Assembly (NCBI GenBank): GCA_015494735.1
Contig: WGAQ01000159.1
Span: forward strand, 1-46,450
Origin: a candidate division WOR-3 bacterium
GTDB taxonomy: Bacteria; Hydrothermota; Hydrothermia; LBFQ01; DSFT01
DNA: 46,450 nucleotides
Reading direction: 5' to 3'
Positions 4,316 to 22,413 of the stretch are shown in pieces. Numbering within the stretch: the first letter of the stretch is position 1; every line of letters starts with the position of its first letter. Below the pieces are notes generated by a model, which ran no database searches, had not been told where the DNA came from, and worked only from the letters and a program-made list of their open reading frames with translations. The position numbers were made by a program, and so were the translations under genes.

Positions 4316-5329
4316 ATGCCCTGGAAGAGATTATTCCCCCTCGCTCTCGGTATAGCCCTCGCGGGATGCGGGGGTGGGGAGGGACAGAAGATAATAAACG
4401 GTGCCGGCTCTTCGTTCGTATATCCCCTCCTGTCCAAGTGGACGAGTGATTACAGCAAGGCGACGGGAATCCGCATCAACTATCAGTCTATCGGCTCCGG
4501 AGGGGGTATAAGGCAGGTCTCTGCCAGAACCGTGGACTTTGGAGCCAGCGATGCACCCCTCACTCCCCGCGAACTGGACTCCCTGAATTTATACCAGTTC
4601 CCCATAATAGTGGGAGGAGTGGTTCCGGTCCTGAATGTGCCCGGAGTGGAAAAGGGACAGATGAAACTCTCGACCCGCGTGGTATGCGATATTTTCCTGG
4701 GGAAGATTACCAGATGGAATGACCCATCCCTCAAGGAATTGAATCCCGAGCTGAATCTGCCCGATATGGAGATAACCGTGGTCCACAGGTCCGACGGCTC
4801 AGGAACCACCTGGCTCTGGACCAACTACCTGAGCAAGGCCTGTCCCGAATGGAAGGAGAAGGTGGGGTACGGTAAGAGTGTGAAATGGCCCACCGGAATT
4901 GGAGCAAAGGGGAACGAGGGTGTGGCCAATTACGTGAAACAGAATGTGGGCTCCATAGGATACGTGGAATTTGCCTATGCCGTGCAGAGCAATCTCGTAT
5001 ATGCCCTTCTGGAGAACAAGGCGGGCAACTTCGTGGAGCCATCCATTAATTCCTTCAAGGCAGCCACCGCCAACGCCAGCTGGGACCCGGGCACCCACTT
5101 CTATCAGGTTCTGACCTGGCAGGACGGGAAGGATTCGTGGCCCGTGGTGGGAGCGGTCTTCATCCTCCTCCCCCGGGAGAAGAAGGAAGTCAACCGGATG
5201 ATTCTGGACTTCTTCGGATGGGCTTTCGACAACGGAGACGATGCGGCGGTCAGCCTCTACTACGTACCCCTCCCCATGTCCATAAAGGAACTCGTCAGGG
5301 GATACTGGAAGGAAGTGGTTCTCAGATAG
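4316..5329 (+). CDS. pstS: Phosphate ABC transporter substrate-binding lipoprotein PstS
   Basis: Lipobox LALGIALAGCGG. GAGSSFVYPLLSKWTSDYSKATGIRINYQSIGSGGGIRQ is a classic PstS N-terminal signature. No pstCAB follows. Confidence 0.9.
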   Translation: MPWKRLFPLALGIALAGCGGGEGQKIINGAGSSFVYPLLSKWTSDYSKATGIRINYQSIGSGGGIRQVSARTVDFGASDAPLTPRELDSLNLYQFPIIVGGVVPVLNVPGVEKGQMKLSTRVVCDIFLGKITRWNDPSLKELNPELNLPDMEITVVHRSDGSGTTWLWTNYLSKACPEWKEKVGYGKSVKWPTGIGAKGNEGVANYVKQNVGSIGYVEFAYAVQSNLVYALLENKAGNFVEPSINSFKAATANASWDPGTHFYQVLTWQDGKDSWPVVGAVFILLPREKKEVNRMILDFFGWAFDNGDDAAVSLYYVPLPMSIKELVRGYWKEVVLR

Positions 5330-5356
5330 GGGGACTTTCCCCCTGTCCATTCTTTT
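5329..5356. terminator. Bidirectional intrinsic terminator between convergent pstS and atpD
   Basis: GGGGG (5329-5333), loop acttt, CCCCC (5339-5343), then tgtccattctttt. Confidence 0.5.
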
Positions 5357-6002
5357 AGAAGGTTCCCTCCCCCTCTTTCTTCTTCTCAGCCTTCCTCTTC
5401 AGAATCTTCAGACGGAACTTATCCTCCCTCTCCCTGTCTTCCAGGACCTGACTGATGAATTTCACCTGCTCCTGAAGCTCCGGGATGAGCTTCTGCTCGA
5501 GGGCATTGACCCTCCTGTTGGTCTTGCGTATCTCCTCCCCGAATTTCTTGAGTTTGTATTCCAGAGGAATGACCTTCAGGACCGTGTCTATCGCCCTCTC
5601 GAAGCTGTCGGCCGTAAGGGTTATACGGGATGTAACGGACAGGGGTATGAATCCCTTCTCTGCAAGGCTCCTTATTATGCTACCATACTTGAACTCCGTC
5701 ACCCTCACGCCCCAGGCCCTTCTGGGGATGATTTCGATTTCCAGACGGCGACCAGAACTGAGAGCAGCCGATTCCAGAGCCTCCATGCCATCGATGCCGA
5801 TGGTTATCATGAGGATGTTGACGCTTCTCCTGATTTCCTCCTCCAGCTTCTTCCTCTCCCTTATGACATCTCCCAGGAGTTTCCGGAATTCGTTCATCAA
5901 CGCATCCCGCTTGTTCTTCAGAAGGCTGGCACCCTGAGTGGCCATCTTAATCTGGCGCTTGAGGTTCAGAAGGTTCATCCGGGTGGGGCTTACCTGCTGC
6001 AT
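5355..6002 (-). CDS. atpD: V-type ATP synthase subunit D
   Basis: MQQVSPTRMNLLNLKRQIKMATQGASLLKNKRDALMNEF matches the conserved V/A-ATPase D N-terminus. ATG 6002 is preferred over the TTG at 6011 given in the track. Confidence 0.9.
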   Translation of the reverse strand: MQQVSPTRMNLLNLKRQIKMATQGASLLKNKRDALMNEFRKLLGDVIRERKKLEEEIRRSVNILMITIGIDGMEALESAALSSGRRLEIEIIPRRAWGVRVTEFKYGSIIRSLAEKGFIPLSVTSRITLTADSFERAIDTVLKVIPLEYKLKKFGEEIRKTNRRVNALEQKLIPELQEQVKFISQVLEDREREDKFRLKILKRKAEKKKEGEGTF

Positions 6003-6014
6003 GGTCCTCAAATT

Positions 6015-7577
6015 TTAAAGGGAGCCGGCCACGTACTCCTCGAATGCCCTCACCAGTTCCCCGGCATCCACGCTGGAAATTACGGGCTTTCCGACATCCT
6101 CTATCAGAACCATCCTTATGCTGGACCTGTAGAAACTGTCCAGATATTCTATCTCCTCCCTCAGACGGGCCATGGGCAATTCCTCCAGGGTGGCATCGAT
6201 GGAGTAGAGTCTGTACAGGGCCTCCACCCTCTCCAGTATAGCGGGATTCTTCAATATCCCTTTCCTCCGGCTCATATCGAGGACGATTTTCAATCCTATG
6301 GCAAGGGCCTTCGAGTACGGGACACCGGTCACATCCTGGAGAATCGACGAGACTATCCATCCGAATTTTATGAATCTGCGCTCCCTCCACCCATAGGCAT
6401 CCCTGTGGATGAAGGCCACTTTGGCCAGAGCAGTCGCCCTTATGAGATGCTCGAGGGAGGGGAGGTACATGTCCTTTATGTTCCGGGTATCCTTTTCGAG
6501 AGTATCTATGATTTCGCCATCATGAAGCAGACCGAACTTTATTGCAGTCACCAGCGAGTTATAAAATTCCTGCTCCCTGAGCGAAAGGAGGAACACGGGG
6601 TCCATGAGGATGAATCTGGGATAATAGCTGGTTCCGAGCACATTCTTCATACCGTTGAGATTCAGCATATTGACCCCGCCGACCGCCACCTCAACCTGCG
6701 CTGTAAAGGTGGTGGGGATTAAGACCAGATGCATACCCCCCTGAAATGTGGACGCCGTAAACCCCGTCAGGTCCATGGAGCTCCCTCCTCCCAGCGCCAC
6801 AATGGGGGTGTACTTGGATATGCGCCTCTTTATCAGCTCCTTCCAGATTTCCCGTGCCCTCTCCAGATTCTTGACACTCTGATTGTCCGGAAGGTACAGG
6901 ACATCGTAGGGCATGTTGAAGTTACCCATCACATCCAGGGCCCACTTGAAGTGTATCAGAAAGAGCCGCTTAAACGTGATGAAGAAGGCGTCATCGAATC
7001 CCTCCATGCGCAGAATATCGGAGAACTCCTTGAAGGAGTTGATGCCGAGGTAAATCTTCTCACCGTTGCTGTAAATCAGGGCATAGTCCGAGCGCAGTAT
7101 CCGGGTTATCATGATGGCCACTTCCCTGTCGGTGAAACCCTCTGTGGGCACGTTGTACATATAGGGGAGAAGCTCCTCCACCTCTCTGTTCAGGTCCTGA
7201 AGGCTCTTCAACTTCAGTATGGGATGGGCGACGGGTTCCTCCTGTATGCTCTTCTCCAGAGTCTCTGTAGTGGAACTCAGGTAAACGGGTATTATGCCAT
7301 TCTCCCTGATTATGTGGAGTTCATTGATGGACGGCAGGAGGTCCGAACTGAGGAGTATGACCCCCGCTTCCGGATTCATGACCAGGTCCAGCTCCTGCCT
7401 GCGGAATTCGTCGAGGAGGTTGTTCTCTATAATCTCCAGCATACTCCTGTGCATCCGGGACTCCACTTCCTTCTGGAGGTCCAGAATCTTCCATCCGAGC
7501 CATCTGTTGAGATATTCAGCGATGCGGTACTTGTGGGAGCCCGGAAGTCCGCATATATACACACCCCTTACCTTCAT
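6015..7577 (-). CDS. Shikimate kinase-like / 3-dehydroquinate synthase-like fusion protein, apparently catalytically degenerate
   Basis: The N-terminus aligns by eye to AroK but the Walker A is GLPGSHKY rather than GxxxxGK[ST]. The C-terminal half aligns to AroB: GGGSSMDLTGF...IPTTFTAQVEVAVGGVNMLN...MKNVLGTSYYP. The start ATG overlaps the upstream stop as ATGA. Confidence 0.7.
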   Translation of the reverse strand: MKVRGVYICGLPGSHKYRIAEYLNRWLGWKILDLQKEVESRMHRSMLEIIENNLLDEFRRQELDLVMNPEAGVILLSSDLLPSINELHIIRENGIIPVYLSSTTETLEKSIQEEPVAHPILKLKSLQDLNREVEELLPYMYNVPTEGFTDREVAIMITRILRSDYALIYSNGEKIYLGINSFKEFSDILRMEGFDDAFFITFKRLFLIHFKWALDVMGNFNMPYDVLYLPDNQSVKNLERAREIWKELIKRRISKYTPIVALGGGSSMDLTGFTASTFQGGMHLVLIPTTFTAQVEVAVGGVNMLNLNGMKNVLGTSYYPRFILMDPVFLLSLREQEFYNSLVTAIKFGLLHDGEIIDTLEKDTRNIKDMYLPSLEHLIRATALAKVAFIHRDAYGWRERRFIKFGWIVSSILQDVTGVPYSKALAIGLKIVLDMSRRKGILKNPAILERVEALYRLYSIDATLEELPMARLREEIEYLDSFYRSSIRMVLIEDVGKPVISSVDAGELVRAFEEYVAGSL

Positions 7578-10500
7578 CTCACCACCACCAGTTTCTTTCG
7601 ATACACCTTCCTTATTCCGCTACTCTCAAGTTTAAGGACAGCAATGTAGAGACCGCTTCCCAGTCTGGCATCCTCCCACACCACGGAGTTGAATCCGGCA
7701 TTCACGGTGAAGAGGGGCGAGGAGTAAACCAGATTACCGCTCATGTCGTACAGGAGAACCCTTCCGGTGGCCGGAGCCGTGGACACGAAGGTGAAGTAGA
7801 GGTCCCCTCCCCTGAAGGGAACGGGATAGAGGAGGAAATCCGAGACCTCCAGTTGATTGCTGGCGAAGTAGAGCACGTAATCCCGGGTCGAGAGATTATC
7901 GTAATTGTCCCACGCCCGTATGGTAAGCCTGTGCCATCCCTGCTCCCGCGTCAAATCGTACTGGAGAAGGGCCTCTCCCTCCGTGTAGGAGTTCTCGTAG
8001 TAGGAGAAGGACTGGGTTAGGGTCCACCTGAGCTGGCCATCCACATAGACCTCTATGTCCCTCTCACCGGGGGAGAGGTATATGCCGTTCTCATCGGACA
8101 GAACGATGCGGAAAGTCCCGACGGGGGAGAAGGACATGCTATCCCTCACATCCCTTCCCCCTATCATCATGCGGATGGATGGTCCTATCGTATCCTGTGC
8201 AATTCTGGCAGGGTCAAATGCCACCGATATGGAATCCCTGCCCTTCACACCACCCCTGTACAGGGCCCTCACCTTCAGTTTTCTGGCGACCGGAGTATTC
8301 TTGGGGATTATCGCCCGCAGGGAATCGGAATAGAGGGGGGCCCGGAAGAAGGTCTTATCCTCGTCCATGTAAGTGTAGGTGTAGGAGCAGTTGGTGACCG
8401 TTATGGTGTCCGGGAGGAATCCTATGGTGGAGAAGTACTGCCCCTGCCCCCCGAGGTATGCCGAATAGAGGGCACCCACGTAAGCGGTATCCGGAGCCCA
8501 TATCACGCTGTCCGGAGGCTCGTACCCGATGGACACGGATGGGTCCCCGAAGAGGACATAGTACTTGTTGGTCTTTCCCTGAAGGGCAAGGAATCCCATC
8601 GGATACTTCCTGTAGTCCATAAGGGTGGAAAAGATGGTGTTGGCGTAAATCTGATTGCCCGTCACATAGGACAGGGCAGTGGCTCCCAGAAGGCCGATGG
8701 CCCCGCCGTCCTCGATGAACATCAACTCCCCCAGCCCCCTGGGACCGGCGAAACTGATTCTATCGAAGACGCTCACCTTACAACTGAGTATCATGACGAA
8801 GGGATTGTGGCCCGCGGTGTTGAGCAGGTGGACGTTGTCTAAAGTGATGAGCCTCTCCCCGGCTATGGTGGAGGGGTTCCCATGGGCGAAGACGTTGACG
8901 ATGAGGTTGCCCGAATTGTACTTACTGATGAAATCGGAGGTGGCCTGCGGTTTGGTGCCCCCAACGGTGGGATACTCGTGCATGTAGAGGGTCCAGACTT
9001 CCGCCTCAAGGGGGATGAGATTCCTCCTTATGTAATCCGATGGAACGAGATGCCAGGTGATTTCGCATGGACTGCTTCCCACGAAGTCATCCGCCACCAG
9101 CATCACCCGATTCCTCCAGAAGGAGAAGAATCTGGACGTTTCGTAGTCCATTACCCTCGAAATTATCCTGCCCGTTTCACCTGAGTTCCTCACAGGTATC
9201 CTTCCGATGTATATGTCCGCGTATCCGTTTCCATCGAAATCCGCATAGAAATCGTCCCAGGAGCCCACCCCCGTTATGTTTATATCGTACACCTCCTTCA
9301 CATCGTAATAGACGGGAAAGAGATTCCCCTCCGTCGTGATGTACCCCCGGTAATCGTACGTGGCATCTCCCACGAAGAGGGCATAGAGGAGGGAGGGGGT
9401 GGAATTGTACAGGGAATACAGGAAATTCCTTATGGCCACAGGGTCAGGAACACCGAGGGAGAACTGGTCGTAAATCTCCTCCAGAGACACGTATTCCACG
9501 TTCCCGGAGCCCGCGCAGAATATGGTGTCGCATTCGACGGGCATCCTGCTTCTTCTGAATTCCCGGTAAGAGTCGAAGACCCCCCTGAAAATCTCCTTTC
9601 CGATAATCACGTACGCCACATCCCCCAGATTCCTTATGTCCCTGCCGATGTTGACGTAATGGAGGGATGGGGAGAGAAAAGTGTCCGATTTGAAATAAAT
9701 GTCTCCCGGGGACACCTCATCCGCACCGGAGGAAAGGATTACGGGATGAGCAGGGTCGGTTATGCGCAGAATCAGGGGTGCATCCCCCAGATGGTACGTG
9801 CCCGTGACGGAAGAGAAGATCTTTCCGGAAGAAGGAAGGCTCCTGCTGTACCTGATTTCGAAGTAGTCCAGATACACCATCTGATTGGTGCCGTTGACTC
9901 TGAAGGTTATGCTCCCCTGAGGGGACAGGTTGGAAACGGGAACCGTAAGGGTGCTCTTCCTGGCATTGTACGTATTCACCGTTGCCACGAGATTCCCGTT
10001 GAGGAATACGTCCACCGTGCCGTATCCGGTGAAATCCCCCAGGTCCTCCGCCCCCACTATGGAGACGGAAAGGGTCCCGGATGGAGAGGTCAACCCCTCC
10101 AGGGTAAAATCGAAAGTGTGGCTTCCATAGGTCATCTCCTCCCCCACCCAGGCCGTTCCCTTCCTGCCCGGATTGAACCTCTGGATTTCGTGATGGTATA
10201 TCCCCAGCGCCGGAAGGGGCGAGGAGGAGGACACGGAAGATGTACCCATGCGAATTCCCGGAGATGGGGCTCCTATTCCGAGCCAGTAGGATGTGAAGTT
10301 GCTGTATGGATGGATGAAGTAAAAGATGGTGGAATCGGAACTGCGGAATCCATCCGGGCCCTCTGCGTAGAAGAAGATGTAGTCCTCCGCATCCATCATG
10401 CCATCCCCGTCGGCATCGTGAATGCCATAGGCGATTTCCACTGCCCCGCTGTCTGCCCATTCGATATCGCTCCTCAACGTGTCGAACAGTCCAAGGAGCA

Positions 10501-11050
10501 GAACTCCATCGAATCTCAGCTCCCCTGCAGGTATGCCCAGAGATGTAAGGTCCGAGCCATACACCCTGTAAACCCCGGAAGTGGTTATATTCATGCGTAC
10601 CCAGTACCGGGCTCCGTTTATGAATCCCAGCTTCCCGGGGGCGACCCTCCGCCCCCTTATCCACTCCCGCGGGAAGGGATAGTTGATGAATCGCCTGTAT
10701 ATGGGCCTCCATCTGCCATCCCCTTTCCCTCCCCCGGATAGGGAAATCCTGACCCTCCACCTCACGGGCACCTTTCCACCCCTCAGAACGGGGTTGAAGG
10801 TGAGAACCACGTGGTCCACCTCTCCCCTCACCACCCTGTAATTCAGTGGACTGTCATGGCTGGAATACAGATTCAACCCGAGGGGAGCACTCTTCCACTC
10901 CAGAACGGTATAGTCCACCCTGACCTTCGCGCCGGGAGGAATGGCCACCAGATGGGTCGTGGGGGCATTGATGAGATTTTCGTACTCTATGACTATACCC
11001 CTGTCGCTATTCTCCAGAATGCTCACCGATGAGAAAAGGAGGAAAATCAT
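7574..11050 (-). CDS. C25 family cysteine peptidase with T9SS C-terminal domain (PorU-like sortase candidate)
   Basis: 1158 aa. Gingipain-type dyad VNVFAHGNPS (His codon 8882-8884) and FVMILSCKVS (Cys codon 8780-8782), 34 residues apart. FVGDATYDY...FYADFDGNGYADIYIGRIPV is C25-typical. CTD is YPVPFRGGDLYF...LLYDMSGNLV...GLYIAVL...KLVVVR. Confidence 0.8.
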   Translation of the reverse strand: MIFLLFSSVSILENSDRGIVIEYENLINAPTTHLVAIPPGAKVRVDYTVLEWKSAPLGLNLYSSHDSPLNYRVVRGEVDHVVLTFNPVLRGGKVPVRWRVRISLSGGGKGDGRWRPIYRRFINYPFPREWIRGRRVAPGKLGFINGARYWVRMNITTSGVYRVYGSDLTSLGIPAGELRFDGVLLLGLFDTLRSDIEWADSGAVEIAYGIHDADGDGMMDAEDYIFFYAEGPDGFRSSDSTIFYFIHPYSNFTSYWLGIGAPSPGIRMGTSSVSSSSPLPALGIYHHEIQRFNPGRKGTAWVGEEMTYGSHTFDFTLEGLTSPSGTLSVSIVGAEDLGDFTGYGTVDVFLNGNLVATVNTYNARKSTLTVPVSNLSPQGSITFRVNGTNQMVYLDYFEIRYSRSLPSSGKIFSSVTGTYHLGDAPLILRITDPAHPVILSSGADEVSPGDIYFKSDTFLSPSLHYVNIGRDIRNLGDVAYVIIGKEIFRGVFDSYREFRRSRMPVECDTIFCAGSGNVEYVSLEEIYDQFSLGVPDPVAIRNFLYSLYNSTPSLLYALFVGDATYDYRGYITTEGNLFPVYYDVKEVYDINITGVGSWDDFYADFDGNGYADIYIGRIPVRNSGETGRIISRVMDYETSRFFSFWRNRVMLVADDFVGSSPCEITWHLVPSDYIRRNLIPLEAEVWTLYMHEYPTVGGTKPQATSDFISKYNSGNLIVNVFAHGNPSTIAGERLITLDNVHLLNTAGHNPFVMILSCKVSVFDRISFAGPRGLGELMFIEDGGAIGLLGATALSYVTGNQIYANTIFSTLMDYRKYPMGFLALQGKTNKYYVLFGDPSVSIGYEPPDSVIWAPDTAYVGALYSAYLGGQGQYFSTIGFLPDTITVTNCSYTYTYMDEDKTFFRAPLYSDSLRAIIPKNTPVARKLKVRALYRGGVKGRDSISVAFDPARIAQDTIGPSIRMMIGGRDVRDSMSFSPVGTFRIVLSDENGIYLSPGERDIEVYVDGQLRWTLTQSFSYYENSYTEGEALLQYDLTREQGWHRLTIRAWDNYDNLSTRDYVLYFASNQLEVSDFLLYPVPFRGGDLYFTFVSTAPATGRVLLYDMSGNLVYSSPLFTVNAGFNSVVWEDARLGSGLYIAVLKLESSGIRKVYRKKLVVVR

Positions 11051-11054
11051 GGAC

Positions 11055-11240
11055 TCAGAACTTCTCCGCTTCCTTCTCCAGCATTATGGGGATACCTTCC
11101 CGGACCGGATACTTCAGACGGCATCTGTGGCAGATGAGGACATTCTCTTCCTCCCTGTATTCCAGACGGCCCTTGCACTTGGGACAGACGAGTATTTCGA
11201 GCAGTTCATCGGGAACCCTGTTCTTCGAATCGCTCCGCAT
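11055..11240 (-). CDS. Trm112 family zinc-ribbon protein (UPF0434/YcaR-like)
   Basis: 61 aa. [42 protein letters not shown]. Confidence 0.85.
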
Positions 11241-11244
11241 AGGG

Positions 11245-11254
11245 AAAATTATAG
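11245..11254 (-). promoter_or_regulatory. Promoter-like box upstream of the trm112-like gene (leaderless-type)
   Basis: Minus strand cccTATAATTTTccctATG. It is preceded by the hairpin AGGGCG/CGCCCT (11261-11278), which spans the nuoB stop. Confidence 0.4.
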
Positions 11255-11276
11255 GGGATGAGGGCGAAAAATCGCC

Positions 11277-11843
11277 CTAAAGGTTGAACAGAGGTCCCCT
11301 CTCTTTCTCTATCTTCTTCTTCAACTGGAGGATTCCATAGAGGAGGCTTTCAGGCCTGGGGGGACATCCGGGAACGTACACATCCACGGGCACTATGTTA
11401 TCCACCCCGGGAACCACTGCATAGTTCCAGTACTTACCCCCGGTGTTGGCACACGTTCCCATGGATATGACGTACTTGGGCTCCGCCATCTGGTCGTATA
11501 TCTGGCGAAGGATGGGGGCCATCTTCCAGGTGACGGTGCCGGATACTATCATGAGGTCCGCCTGCCTGGGGGATGCCCTGAAGACCTCGTATCCAAGACG
11601 GGCCATATCGTATCGAGGCTGGGCAGTGGCCATCATCTCGATAGCACAGCACGCCAGACCGAAGGTGACGGGCCAGATGGAATGTCCCTTTCCCCAGTTG
11701 ACCGCCCAGCGAATCATGTCCTCCACCTTCGTGAGGAGCAGAGCCCTCTCCAGTTGCCTGCGGATTACCTTCTCCTCTTCCGGGTCCAGCTTGATATTCC
11801 TCCAGAGGAGTGCTTTCTCCTGCCCGTTGACCCCTACTGCCAT
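11277..11843 (-). CDS. nuoB: NADH-quinone oxidoreductase subunit B
   Basis: [25 protein letters not shown] and VPGCPPRPE Fe-S ligand motifs. Confidence 0.95.
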
Positions 11844-12190
11844 TCCAGACCTCCTTTTCTCCAGATATAGACGTAACCAATCAGGAGAATCAGGATGAAG
11901 ATGAGCATCTCGATGAAGGCGAAGAGTTTGAGGTCCATAACCTTGACGGCCCAGGGGTACATGAAGACCACCTCTATATCGAATATGAGGAAGGCAAGGG
12001 CCGTGAGATAGTACTGGATATTGGCCTTATACTCCCACCTGCCGGGCTTAACTCCGGATTCATACGGATTGAGTTTTTCCCTGTAGGGATTGCGCTTTCC
12101 AAGGAACATGGAGATGGCAAGAACACCGTAGGCTATTATCAGGCCTACGACCGTCATTAAGAGCACCACGAAATATGGATTTATCTTCAT
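11834..12190 (-). CDS. nuoA: NADH-quinone oxidoreductase subunit A
   Basis: NPYESGVKP...[26 protein letters not shown] 12190 is preferred; the track ORF starts at TTG 12202. It overlaps the nuoB start by 10 nt. Confidence 0.9.
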
Positions 12191-12199
12191 GGCTCTAAT

Positions 12200-12211
12200 C
12201 AAAAGGTTAAA
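12200..12211 (-). promoter_or_regulatory. Promoter-like box upstream of nuoA
   Basis: Minus strand gcCTTTAACCTTTTGattagagccATG. Confidence 0.4.
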
Positions 12212-12481: not shown

Positions 12482-13546
12482 ATGTTGATGATTTTCGTGA
12501 TTCTGCCATTAGTCTCCCTTCTCGTAGCCTTCTTAATAGCCTTCCTCATGGGGTTCCTCTTCGGCACATTTCCCGTCCTGGAGGCGGAGCCCCTGCGCAG
12601 CATCATAGTGGGAGCGGTGGTGGTTACGGCTTCCCTCCTGATATCCGTCCTCATGATATACACCGAGAGGAAGGTGGCCGCCAGACTCCACGGAAGGCTG
12701 GGACCCTATCTGGTTGGAAGACCCCACGGATGGCTCCAGCTCATCGCGGATGCCCTCAAGATGCTCCTGAAGGAGGACATAGTCCCTAAGAAGGCCGACA
12801 GATTCCTGTTCAATCTGGCCCCCATACTCTTCGTATTCTCCGCCATCCTTGCATTCGCCGTCGTTCCTGCCGATAACGGTGCGGTTCTCTTCGATTGGGA
12901 CCTCGGAATCCTCTTCATACTGGCGGTTGCAGGATTCCCCATAATCGGAAACATACTGGCCGGATTCGCCTCCAACTCCAAGTATCCCCTCATATCTGCG
13001 GTGAGGTCCGCGGGAGTCATGCTGGCATACGAGGTTCCCCTGGTCCTCACCATACTGGTTCCCGTGGTTCTGGCCGGGAGCTTCAACCTGACCGATATAG
13101 TGGAGGCGCAGAAGTCCCTGCCCTACATATTCGTTCCCGTCGTGGGGCAGGTGGCTTTCGTCATATTCCTCATCACATCCCTCGCGGAGACCAACAGGGC
13201 TCCATTTGACATAGCAGAGGCAGAGTCGGAACTGGTCTCCGGAGCCAACGTGGAATACTCGGGTATGAAGTTCGGCTTCTTCTATCTGGGTGAGTACATA
13301 TTCCACTTCATCAGCGCCATACTCATCGTCATCTTCTTCCTCGCGGGATGGCACGGACCTCTCCTTCCCGGATGGGCCTGGATGGTGATAAAGGTGTACT
13401 TCGTGTACGTATTCCTCCTCCTCATAAGATGGACCTACACCCGATACAGGCTGGACCAGTTCATAACTCTGGCGTGGAAGTGGCTCATACCCATATCCTT
13501 CGTCAACTTTATACTGGCCGTGCTGGTGAAGTACTACTTCATGTGA
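12482..13546 (+). CDS. nuoH: NADH-quinone oxidoreductase subunit H
   Basis: ERKVAARLHGRLGPYLVGRPHGWLQLIADALKMLLKED and LAETNRAPFDIAEAESELVSG are NuoH/ND1 signatures. Confidence 0.95.
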   Translation: MLMIFVILPLVSLLVAFLIAFLMGFLFGTFPVLEAEPLRSIIVGAVVVTASLLISVLMIYTERKVAARLHGRLGPYLVGRPHGWLQLIADALKMLLKEDIVPKKADRFLFNLAPILFVFSAILAFAVVPADNGAVLFDWDLGILFILAVAGFPIIGNILAGFASNSKYPLISAVRSAGVMLAYEVPLVLTILVPVVLAGSFNLTDIVEAQKSLPYIFVPVVGQVAFVIFLITSLAETNRAPFDIAEAESELVSGANVEYSGMKFGFFYLGEYIFHFISAILIVIFFLAGWHGPLLPGWAWMVIKVYFVYVFLLLIRWTYTRYRLDQFITLAWKWLIPISFVNFILAVLVKYYFM

Positions 13547-20613: not shown

Positions 20614-22413
20614 TTATACTGCTTCCCTTCTCTTGGAAAGTTCCTGCTTCAGAGAGTTGAGTATATCCTGAGCCACGGCATCCACCTTATCCTCGGGCTC
20701 CTCCTTCAGACGCATAATCCGCTCCACCTGCGGAAGGGTCGGAATCTCGTCCGCTTCCAGAATCTCCTCCTCCACTGCCCTGCGGATTTCCTCGTAGAAC
20801 TTATAAATGGTGTCCATCATGACGAACTGCTTGTGGAGGGAGCAGTCAGCATCCACGGGATGGAATGCATTCTGCTGTAGATAACCGATTCGGATAATCC
20901 TTCCGATTTCCAGCATGACCCTCTCCATCTCCTGAAGGGCATCGGGACCGATGAGTTGCACGATTTCCTCGAGTTCGGCCTCCTTCTGAAGCACCTCGGA
21001 AATCCAGGTGCGCCTCTCGCTCCAGAGCTCGTTGACATTCTCTTTATACCACTTCTCTATGAGGGGATAGTAAAGGGTATAACTCTTGAGCCAGTTGATG
21101 GCCGGATAGTGCCTCCTCCTGGCCAGGTTGGAATCCAGAGCCCAGAAGGCACCCACCACCCTGAGGGTGGCCTGAGTAACGGGCTCGGAGTAATCACCTC
21201 CCTGAGGGGACACCGCACCAACCGCCGTAACGGAACCCTCCTGATTGGACAGGGTCCTGACGCGGCCGGTCCTCTCGTAGAAGGCTGCGAGCCTGGAGGA
21301 CAGATAGGTGGGATAACCCTCTTCACCGGGCATCTCCTCGAGACGAGAGGACAACTCCCTCAGGGCCTCCGCCCATCTGGAAGTGGAGTCCGCCAGAAGG
21401 AGCACATTGTAGCCCATATCCCTGTAGTACTCCGCAAGGGTAATACCGGTGTAGATGGACGCTTCACGGGCGGCAACGGGCATGTTGGAGGTGTTCACCA
21501 CCAGTATGGTCCTGTTCATGAGGGGCTCTCCGGGTCTTGTGGGGTCCTCCAGCTCGGGGAATTCGGTCAGAACTTCTGTCATCTCGTTTCCACGCTCACC
21601 GCATCCGATGTAAACCACCACGTCCACCCTCGCATACTTGGCCAGGGTCTGCTCCGTAACCGTCTTACCGGTGCCGAATCCACCGGGCAGACCTGCGTTT
21701 CCGCCCAGCGCTATGGGGAATAGGGTATCCAGAATCCTCTGACCCGTCTGGAGGGGGATGGTGGGAAGCTCCTTCCGGAGGACAGGCCTGGGAACACGGA
21801 CGGGCCACTTGTGGGCCATCCTGATTTCGTACTCCTTACCGGTCTCGTCGTCCTTTATAACCGCAATGGTATCGTGAACCGTATAGGAACCTTCCTTTAT
21901 ATCCACGACCGTAAAGGTCTTCTCGAAGTCTTCCTTATCGAACTCCGTCTTACCGATGATGTTGGGAGGTACCATCACCCTGTGGGGAATGGAGGGGGTT
22001 TCCTGCACCTCCCCTATCACGCTTCCCAGCTTAACCTTATCGCCCACCTTTACTGTGGGCCTGAATTCCCACTTCTTTTCCGGGTCGAGGGCCGGAATAT
22101 CCACGCCCCTGGTAATGAAGGGACCAACCCTGTCCCTGATAACGTCGAGGGGACGCTGAATTCCGTCGAATGCCTGTCCGAGAAGTCCGGGGCCCAGTTC
22201 CACAACCAGCGATTCTCCAGTCCTCTCTATGGGCTCTCCCACGAAGAGTCCGGAAGTGTCCTCGTAAACCTGTATGAATGCTGTATCTCCCTTAAGCCTG
22301 ATTATCTCTCCCACCAGTTTTTCCTTACCCACCTTCACGATTTCGTTCATTCGGGCCCCTCTGAGACCCTTTCCAACGACCAGTACGCCCGCTATCCTCG
22401 AAATCTCAGCCAT
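20614..22413 (-). CDS. atpA: V-type ATP synthase catalytic subunit A
   Basis: [16 protein letters not shown] and Walker [10 protein letters not shown]. 599 aa with no intein-sized insertion. Confidence 0.95.

Follow-up and report, generated by a model that had tools for sequence, protein, structure and literature searches.

The closest described system to the gene considered here is the bifunctional AroK-AroB fusion (NF010556/PRK13951), in which shikimate kinase (SK) and 3-dehydroquinate synthase (DHQS) follow one another. Shikimate kinase relies on Arg58, Arg117, and Arg136, and DHQS requires a divalent metal, such that ethylenediaminetetraacetic acid (EDTA) abolishes its activity (PMC7144000). 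DHQS mutants in which a metal-site His was changed to Lys are inactive (PMC9074039). We analyzed a stretch of 46,450 nucleotides from a candidate division WOR-3 bacterium of the class Hydrothermia (contig WGAQ01000159.1, positions 1 to 46,450; hereafter the window). It contains a gene for a 520-amino-acid (520-aa) AroK-AroB-like protein, P0001. The protein has the same domain order as the known fusions, including the canonical ones at WOR-3 loci L024 to L028. The lengths also agree (about 500 to 520 aa), and the identity is 25 to 30% from end to end. However, the P-loop, the DxD and GGG motifs, and the kinase Arg residues are replaced in P0001. In its synthase half, the Glu/His/His triad, Lys152, Asn268, His275, and the DKK motif are replaced as well, and the genome is without other shikimate genes. 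We consider it probable that the gene encodes a conserved pseudoenzyme. It would be the relic of an ancestral AroK-AroB fusion, kept after loss of the pathway for a noncatalytic ligand-binding or scaffolding role; an NAD(H)-type pocket (NAD, nicotinamide adenine dinucleotide) is plausible. We refer to P0001 and the relatives that share its losses as the degenerate form.

The gene and its two halves are located as follows.

6015 to 7577, minus strand: AroK-AroB-like putative pseudoenzyme gene, 520 aa (P0001), from the list of open reading frames (ORFs) and the Pfam domains SKI, DHQ_synthase, and DHQS_C.
7083 to 7577, minus strand: shikimate-kinase-like half, residues 1 to 165, predicted to be catalytically degenerate from Pfam SKI and motif losses.
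6018 to 7082, minus strand: 3-dehydroquinate-synthase-like half, residues 166 to 520, from Pfam, NCBIfam, HMMER, and Foldseek.

Pfam and NCBIfam bear out the AroK-like N terminus and AroB-like C terminus that a preliminary description, made by eye from the letters, had assigned to this ORF; the coding strand is the minus strand. The protein has significant sequence homology to the SKI family and to both the N and C domains of DHQS. Pfam placed SKI (PF01202) at residues 13 to 133 with 34.9 bits (gathering score, 22.1), and the same family scored 30.1 bits for this ORF in the profile scan of the whole genome. In an HMMER search of the PDB, the Mycobacterium tuberculosis shikimate kinase structure matched the kinase-like half (E = 6e-4). 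The DHQ_synthase N domain (PF01761) spans residues 228 to 339 (96.5 bits), and DHQS_C (PF24621) spans residues 345 to 474 (40.8 bits). The aroB model TIGR01357 (EC 4.2.3.4) gave 179 bits for the protein and 180.5 bits in the genome scan, both under its equivalog cutoff of 305. The bifunctional AroK/AroB model NF010556 gave 149.5 bits, under a cutoff of 560. Its alignment nevertheless runs from end to end, with residues 6 to 509 of the protein against positions 3 to 488 of the 492 in the model, and the order of SK and then DHQS in one polypeptide is that of the bifunctional enzyme.

The register of the catalytic motifs was tested by HMMER against solved DHQS structures and by MAFFT against canonical AroK-AroB fusions. 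Three independent alignments agree. We therefore rejected a register shift as a way to rescue the catalytic residues: the Lys, Glu, and His that the preliminary description had reported as lost are truly replaced, and every substituted motif it listed, including IKFGWIVSSILQ, was reproduced in the same register by profile alignment. The altered motifs of the kinase half are the following.

7527 to 7550, minus strand: remodeled P-loop GLPGSHKY (residues 10 to 17) in place of GxxGxGK[ST], from alignments.
7341 to 7349, minus strand: SSD (residues 77 to 79) in place of the GGG shikimate-binding loop, from alignments.

Within Walker A, the Gly preceding the Lys has become His, and the Ser/Thr has become Tyr. 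GLPGSH is invariant in g1, the 71%-identity group, and g2, and the third degenerate lineage (P0104) has GLPGTPK. SSD is invariant across all three degenerate lineages. Elsewhere in this half, DxD reads DLQ and RPLL reads HPIL. A Glu occupies the Arg136 position (M. tuberculosis numbering), and only the Arg58 equivalent is mostly kept. The kinase half also has motifs of its own, GLPGSH, DLQxEVE, SSD, and VPTEGFxDxE, which are conserved or invariant in the degenerate clade.

The motifs of the synthase half, retained and altered, are listed below.

6759 to 6791, minus strand: retained glycine-rich NAD-domain motif GGGSSMDLTGF (residues 263 to 273), from alignments.
6672 to 6695, minus strand: VEVAVGGV (residues 295 to 302) in place of VDSSVGGK, with Glu at the Asp146 equivalent and Val at the Lys152 equivalent, from alignments.
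6537 to 6548, minus strand: TAIK (residues 344 to 347) in place of AEVIK, with the metal-ligand Glu changed to Thr, from alignments.
6336 to 6371, minus strand: IKFGWIVSSILQ (residues 403 to 414) in place of LNxGHTxGHAxE, with Asn changed to Lys, the metal-ligand His to Trp, and the catalytic His to Ser, from alignments.
6294 to 6317, minus strand: YSKALAIG (residues 421 to 428), in which HGEA reads YSKA and the third metal ligand, a His, is Tyr, from alignments.

The metal ligands of DHQS, which we take to be Glu194, His271, and His287 in Aspergillus nidulans numbering, thus read T344, W407, and Y421. The catalytic and substrate-phosphate residues Lys152, Asn268, and His275 read V302, K404, and S411, and the DKK motif (Lys356 region) reads LDS. 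Both metal-ligand His residues are replaced in every member of the degenerate clade, and a Glu is still present at position 344 in P0104. The substitutes vary by lineage: V, S, or R at 302; T or D at 344, apart from the Glu of P0104; W, N, or R at 407; and S, Y, or D at 411. Residue 421 is Tyr in g1, the 71%-identity group, and g2 and Phe in P0104.

We then surveyed conservation across 93 canonical homologues, among which 54 positions of the DHQS domain are at least 85% conserved. The degenerate clade fully keeps 20 of these positions, has fully lost another 20, and partly keeps 14. Nearly all of the fully kept positions lie in the N-terminal NAD domain (K236, G263 to G265, D269, G272, F273, G281, P288 to T290, G300 and G301, N312, G315, P320, K347, K386, D393, and G406). 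The fully lost positions are mostly metal or substrate sites and include K302, E344, N404, H407, H411, E414, H421, G422, and D479. This split is not expected by chance. The NAD contacts are presumably those of Carpenter et al. 1998, which we took together with motif conservation. By this assignment, the NAD+-motif positions K236, G263 to G265, D269, the PTT at residues 288 to 290, and N312 are kept, and E233 is Gln in this genus. The alignments thus also uphold the earlier view that the fold-defining motifs GGGSSMDLTGF and PTT are retained.

The rest of the shikimate pathway is missing from the matches in this genome, a 1.76-Mb assembly that is 95% complete. In profile scans, the 520-aa ORF was the sole aroB/aroK homologue, and chorismate synthase (aroC, PF01264) had no match. 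A tblastn search of the genome with aroC, aroA, tyrA, trpA, trpB, and aroE of a relative gave no match either. The preliminary description had held that a sole aroB/aroK copy in an otherwise complete pathway would speak against its pseudoenzyme reading. The copy is indeed the only one, but it stands in a genome that lacks the remaining pathway. PF00275, the MurA/AroA family that includes 5-enolpyruvylshikimate 3-phosphate (EPSP) synthase, also had no match in the assembly. MurA is present in all 60 relatives, and on that ground we rejected a true loss of peptidoglycan synthesis. The absence of PF00275 is almost certainly an assembly gap, and this gap partly explains the missing EPSP-synthase match. 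The 3-deoxy-D-arabino-heptulosonate 7-phosphate (DAHP) synthase of the relative had one tblastn match, a 33%-identical paralogue (G000 C11:2201-2962). This paralogue is most likely 3-deoxy-D-manno-octulosonate 8-phosphate synthase (KdsA) and not a shikimate-pathway enzyme.

We compared the distribution of the protein across 61 related genomes. Within the same GTDB family, all seven genomes have the protein and none of the seven has aroC; the six with a PF00275 match have one copy each, MurA. Identity to the 520-aa protein is 87% within the genus and 42 to 45% in the sister genus, and the sister family has no homologue (0 of 12 genomes). Elsewhere in the class, eight relatives encode a full-length AroK-AroB fusion (25 to 30% identity), and all eight have aroC and a second PF00275 gene. 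Two further genomes in the class have aroC, one with a fragment of the fusion only and one without a match. The canonical fusions of two sequenced families (f5 and f11) keep every catalytic residue.

A profile of the degenerate group was searched against 1.84 billion representatives. It found only three degenerate clusters at 50% identity: P0001, the sister genus (P0103), and the third lineage (P0104). Beyond these clusters, the scores fall from 472 to at most 242 bits, and the top remaining matches that were aligned are canonical, save the partly substituted P0107. P0107, a metagenome representative, is an AroK-AroB fusion with an intact P-loop that is otherwise canonical, but its Lys152 is Glu and its His275 is Tyr. 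P0107 possibly represents partial degeneration in a separate lineage. In a maximum-likelihood tree, the degenerate forms are monophyletic (100/100), with a stem of about 1.6 to 1.7 substitutions per site and short internal branches. The canonical fusion is evidently the ancestor of the degenerate form, because the canonical relatives in the class fall outside the degenerate clade.

The degenerate gene is nevertheless under constraint. The pairwise ratio of nonsynonymous to synonymous substitution rates (dN/dS) in the clade is 0.04 to 0.15, alike in both halves, and that of a canonical pair is 0.125. The reading frames are intact in all 10 aligned sequences, which represent three sublineages. 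An AlphaFold2 model of the 520-aa protein has a predicted local distance difference test score (pLDDT) of 93.6 and a predicted template modeling score (pTM) of 0.92. The top Foldseek matches of the model are the DHQS structures 3okf, 6lla, and 3qbe, with a target-normalized template modeling score (TM-score) of about 0.85 (0.86 at E = 4e-24). The protein is folded and constrained and is not the product of a decaying gene; the dN/dS values led us to reject decay. Purifying selection, a confident fold, and retention throughout the clade lend support to the earlier suggestion of a pseudoenzyme or neofunctionalized scaffold.

The protein both lacks essential catalytic residues and is held by purifying selection, as an operational definition of a pseudoenzyme demands. 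Because metal-site, kinase Arg, and other catalytic residues are replaced, both ancestral activities, shikimate phosphorylation and DAHP cyclization, should be gone. We suggest the following course of events. A bifunctional AroK-AroB fusion would have been ancestral in the WOR-3 (Hydrothermia) class, and the ancestor of one family-level lineage would have lost the pathway for shikimate and aromatic amino acids. A burst of change would have removed the ATP/Mg and shikimate sites of the kinase half and, in the same burst, the metal and substrate-phosphate sites of the synthase half. Since then, strong purifying selection appears to have held the fusion. Its retained role would be cytoplasmic and noncatalytic, either ligand binding or scaffolding, and an NAD(H)-type pocket probably persists in the Rossmann-like N domain. 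In this scenario, a moonlighting side role may have outlived the enzymatic one.

Several points weigh against such a pseudoenzyme. The loss of activity is read from the residues, and NAD(H) binding is read from the retention of motifs, with the Glu81 equivalent being Gln in this genus and Lys152 gone. The invariant or nearly invariant motifs GLPGSH, DLQxEVE, SSD, VPTEGFxDxE, YYPRFIL, and YLPxxE could mark a new ligand site or new chemistry. Moreover, "scaffold or ligand sensor" names a proposed type of mechanism more than a particular one.

Gene order weakly points to two possible partners of the pseudoenzyme, the stalk of the V/A-type ATPase and a C25 peptidase. The neighboring features in the window are as follows.

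5325 to 5347, no strand assigned: GC-rich hairpin where atpD and a pstS-like gene converge, from a pattern match.
5355 to 6011, minus strand: V/A-type ATPase subunit D gene, atpD (central stalk), from Pfam ATP-synt_D (3e-47) and NCBIfam V-type ATP synthase subunit D (1.7e-50).
7574 to 11050, minus strand: C25 (gingipain-type) peptidase gene, 1,158 aa, upstream, from Pfam Peptidase_C25 (1.7e-55).
11055 to 11240, minus strand: Trm112p-like zinc-ribbon ORF, 61 aa, directly preceding the C25 gene, with PF03966 orthologues at L007, L009, L015, and L042.

The TGA stop of the C25 gene overlaps the ATG start of the pseudoenzyme gene in the sequence ATGA at 7574 to 7577. At the other end, the TAA stop of the pseudoenzyme gene (6015 to 6017) and the atpD ATG at 6002 are 12 nt apart, and a GAGGA Shine-Dalgarno-like site lies between them. 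An alternative TTG start at 6011 would leave 3 nt. ATG at 6002 is the likely start of atpD. Both junctions are as first described, with the ATGA overlap on one side and 3 to 12 nt on the other. The hairpin at 5325 to 5347 is the probable end of the transcription unit. Cotranscription of atpD with the pseudoenzyme gene would fit the 12-nt gap, the Shine-Dalgarno-like site, and the position of this hairpin. Promoter and terminator pattern scans gave counts no higher than those of shuffled controls, and only the hairpin after atpD is well placed. Directly upstream of the Trm112p-like/C25/AroK-AroB/atpD block, nuoA and nuoB lie on the same strand (within 11055 to 12202, minus strand). The divergent nuoH is at 12482 to 13546 (plus strand), and the genes of Complex I appear to be split too.

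The arrangement differs among the degenerate lineages.

This genus and the 71%-identity group: Trm112p-like gene, C25 gene, degenerate AroK-AroB gene, atpD.
Third lineage (P0104): Trm112p-like gene, C25 gene, degenerate AroK-AroB gene (ATGA overlap), then a convergent infB, without atpD.
Sister genus, three genomes in full: Fe/Mn superoxide dismutase (SOD)-like gene, coiled-coil gene of 115 to 118 aa, degenerate AroK-AroB gene, with variable downstream genes.

A more specific form of the pseudoenzyme reading is that the protein is a lineage-specific accessory or regulator of the V/A-type ATPase that binds the stalk subunits D and H/G-like and might make assembly or activity respond to nucleotide or NAD(H) status. 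We regard this as possible, though on balance unlikely. In this genus and the 71%-identity group, 12 to 36 nt separate the degenerate gene from atpD downstream of it. All five genomes of the sister genus have the coiled-coil gene immediately upstream of the degenerate gene; in the three read in detail, the two genes overlap by 8 nt, abut directly, or are 25 nt apart. Throughout the GTDB family, this coiled-coil gene is the best match in each genome to the archaeal ATPase subunit H (AhaH). It matched TIGR02926 with E values of 6e-11 to 1e-7 and PRK08404 over its full length, but both matches are under the curated cutoffs, and coiled coils draw spurious matches. The two adjacencies involve different subunits on different sides of the gene. 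Because V-ATPase genes are scattered singly, the chance that a random gene flanks one of them is about 1%, by a rough estimate from about 9 genes among about 1,700. That two sublineages show adjacency to two distinct stalk-subunit genes hence suggests, but does not prove, a V/A-ATPase link. As to conservation of the fusion beside V-ATPase genes, raised in the preliminary description, its neighbor is atpD in this genus and in the group at 71% identity, the AhaH-like gene in the sister genus, and no V-ATPase gene in the P0104 lineage.

That third lineage, with no V-ATPase neighbor, argues against an ATPase accessory. So does the location of the H/G-like orthologue of our genome, which is on another contig (G000 C164:10420-10776). 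The atpD link is limited to the closest relatives (at least 71% identity), and the neighbors of atpD differ in every WOR-3 family examined. We rejected atpD linkage as an ancestral rule: the sister genus and four other families have OmpA-type, M9/PD40 peptidase-like, SurA-like, PTPS, and Cas-like neighbors there. In addition, the sister family has this V-ATPase but no degenerate AroK-AroB protein. The most detailed version, in which the protein docks on stalk subunits D and H/G and uses its dinucleotide pocket, perhaps with the P-loop, so that the rotary ATPase assembles or works according to the NAD(H) or nucleotide state of the cell, is slightly less probable again. To our knowledge, no pseudoenzyme regulator of this kind is known for a prokaryotic rotary ATPase, and our literature searches found none. 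V/A-ATPase genes are dispersed singly in the class, and atpA in the window (20614 to 22413, minus strand) adjoins an Omp85 gene. In this genome, atpD (5355 to 6011, minus strand), atpB (G000 C15:1-1500), and the H/G-like gene (C164:10420-10776) are at separate loci. In the sister genus, the Fe/Mn superoxide dismutase-like gene has an N-terminal extension and is directly upstream of the pair formed by the AhaH-like and degenerate AroK-AroB genes (L030, 7664 to 8377; L031, 7037 to 7750; L032, 9801 to 10520).

It is improbable that the protein is instead a neofunctionalized enzyme, one that binds NAD(H) and catalyzes a new metal-independent reaction or whose P-loop half transfers another phosphoryl or acyl ligand. 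The retained NAD-domain motifs, the strong selection on both halves, and the new conserved motifs of the kinase half would be expected of such an enzyme. However, the residues at the former DHQS center (302, 344, 407, and 411) differ among lineages, which argues against a new conserved catalytic center there. His or Pro has taken the place of the P-loop Gly that precedes the Lys, and Tyr, His, Lys, Arg, or Leu that of the Mg-binding Ser/Thr. By their structure titles, the sugar phosphate cyclases with a bound-metal structure among the fold matches all carry Zn or Co. Adjoining metabolic partner genes are not conserved either.

Partnership with the upstream C25 peptidase, such as a role in maturing or regulating it, is very improbable. 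The Trm112p-like/C25/degenerate AroK-AroB arrangement is present at L007, L009, L015, and L042, and the order with its ATGA overlap is found in two of the three degenerate lineages, including the most divergent one. However, the sister genus is without an adjoining C25 gene. The pseudoenzyme begins at the first strand of the kinase fold and the P-loop, with no signal peptide apparent, and so is likely cytoplasmic, but the C25 orthologues carry a weak type IX secretion signal (Por_Secre_tail) and so are probably exported. We know of no C25 system that has such a partner. A still-working AroK/AroB enzyme, despite significant homology and relatives named as such in databases, or a decaying pseudogene is scarcely credible, given a metal-ligand His pair, Lys152, His275, and P-loop lost in every member of the clade, a genome without the supplier of the substrate and the consumers of the product, and the intact frames and low dN/dS noted above.

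A conserved pseudoenzyme of this kind would be a clean case, in nature, of one protein outlasting its whole pathway as a strongly conserved fusion that is dead in both halves. Its survival would imply a second role that predated or replaced catalysis. Public annotations of the degenerate clade read "shikimate kinase / 3-dehydroquinate synthase," "shikimate kinase," or "iron-containing alcohol dehydrogenase." As a consequence, metabolic reconstructions of WOR-3/Hydrothermia will overcount shikimate steps. We found no paper on a dead DHQS of this kind; a full-text search for "3-dehydroquinate synthase" with "pseudoenzyme" gave one unrelated paper. The V/A-type ATPase is the main ATP synthase in this phylum (PMC12285271), and a link to it, if true, would reveal a previously unrecognized protein that regulates such a rotary ATPase in prokaryotes.

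Among known systems other than the canonical fusion, the sugar phosphate cyclases are alike in predicted fold, with target-normalized TM-scores reaching about 0.87 across some 360 residues. They comprise DHQS (3okf, 6lla, and 1dqs), 2-deoxy-scyllo-inosose synthase (DOIS; 2gru), the 2-epi-5-epi-valiolone synthase (EEVS) ValA (4p53), and desmethyl-4-deoxygadusol synthase (DDGS; 5tpr). They share the glycine-rich and PTT motifs of the NAD domain with the degenerate protein. However, the solved cyclases are described as Zn2+-, Co2+-, or Mg2+-bound, usually with NAD, whereas the ligand positions of the degenerate protein hold the noncoordinating residues Thr, Trp, and Tyr, and its substrate-phosphate residues are gone. 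Plant SKL1 and SKL2 (PMC2593004, PMC12203367) and the effector-binding domain of BzdR (PMC3602430) likewise lost kinase function and gained noncatalytic or ligand-sensing roles. Unlike the degenerate fusion, which would be a relic of pathway loss, they arose by duplication beside a working kinase, and none is fused to a dead DHQS. The inactive 3-dehydroquinase (DHQase) domain of Candida albicans Aro1 (PMC9074039) is likewise a shikimate-pathway domain that was rendered dead by active-site substitutions and kept in a multidomain protein. In Aro1, however, only a single domain among five has lost activity and a compensating enzyme, Dqd1, sustains the pathway, whereas in the degenerate AroK-AroB protein both domains appear to be dead and the pathway is gone.

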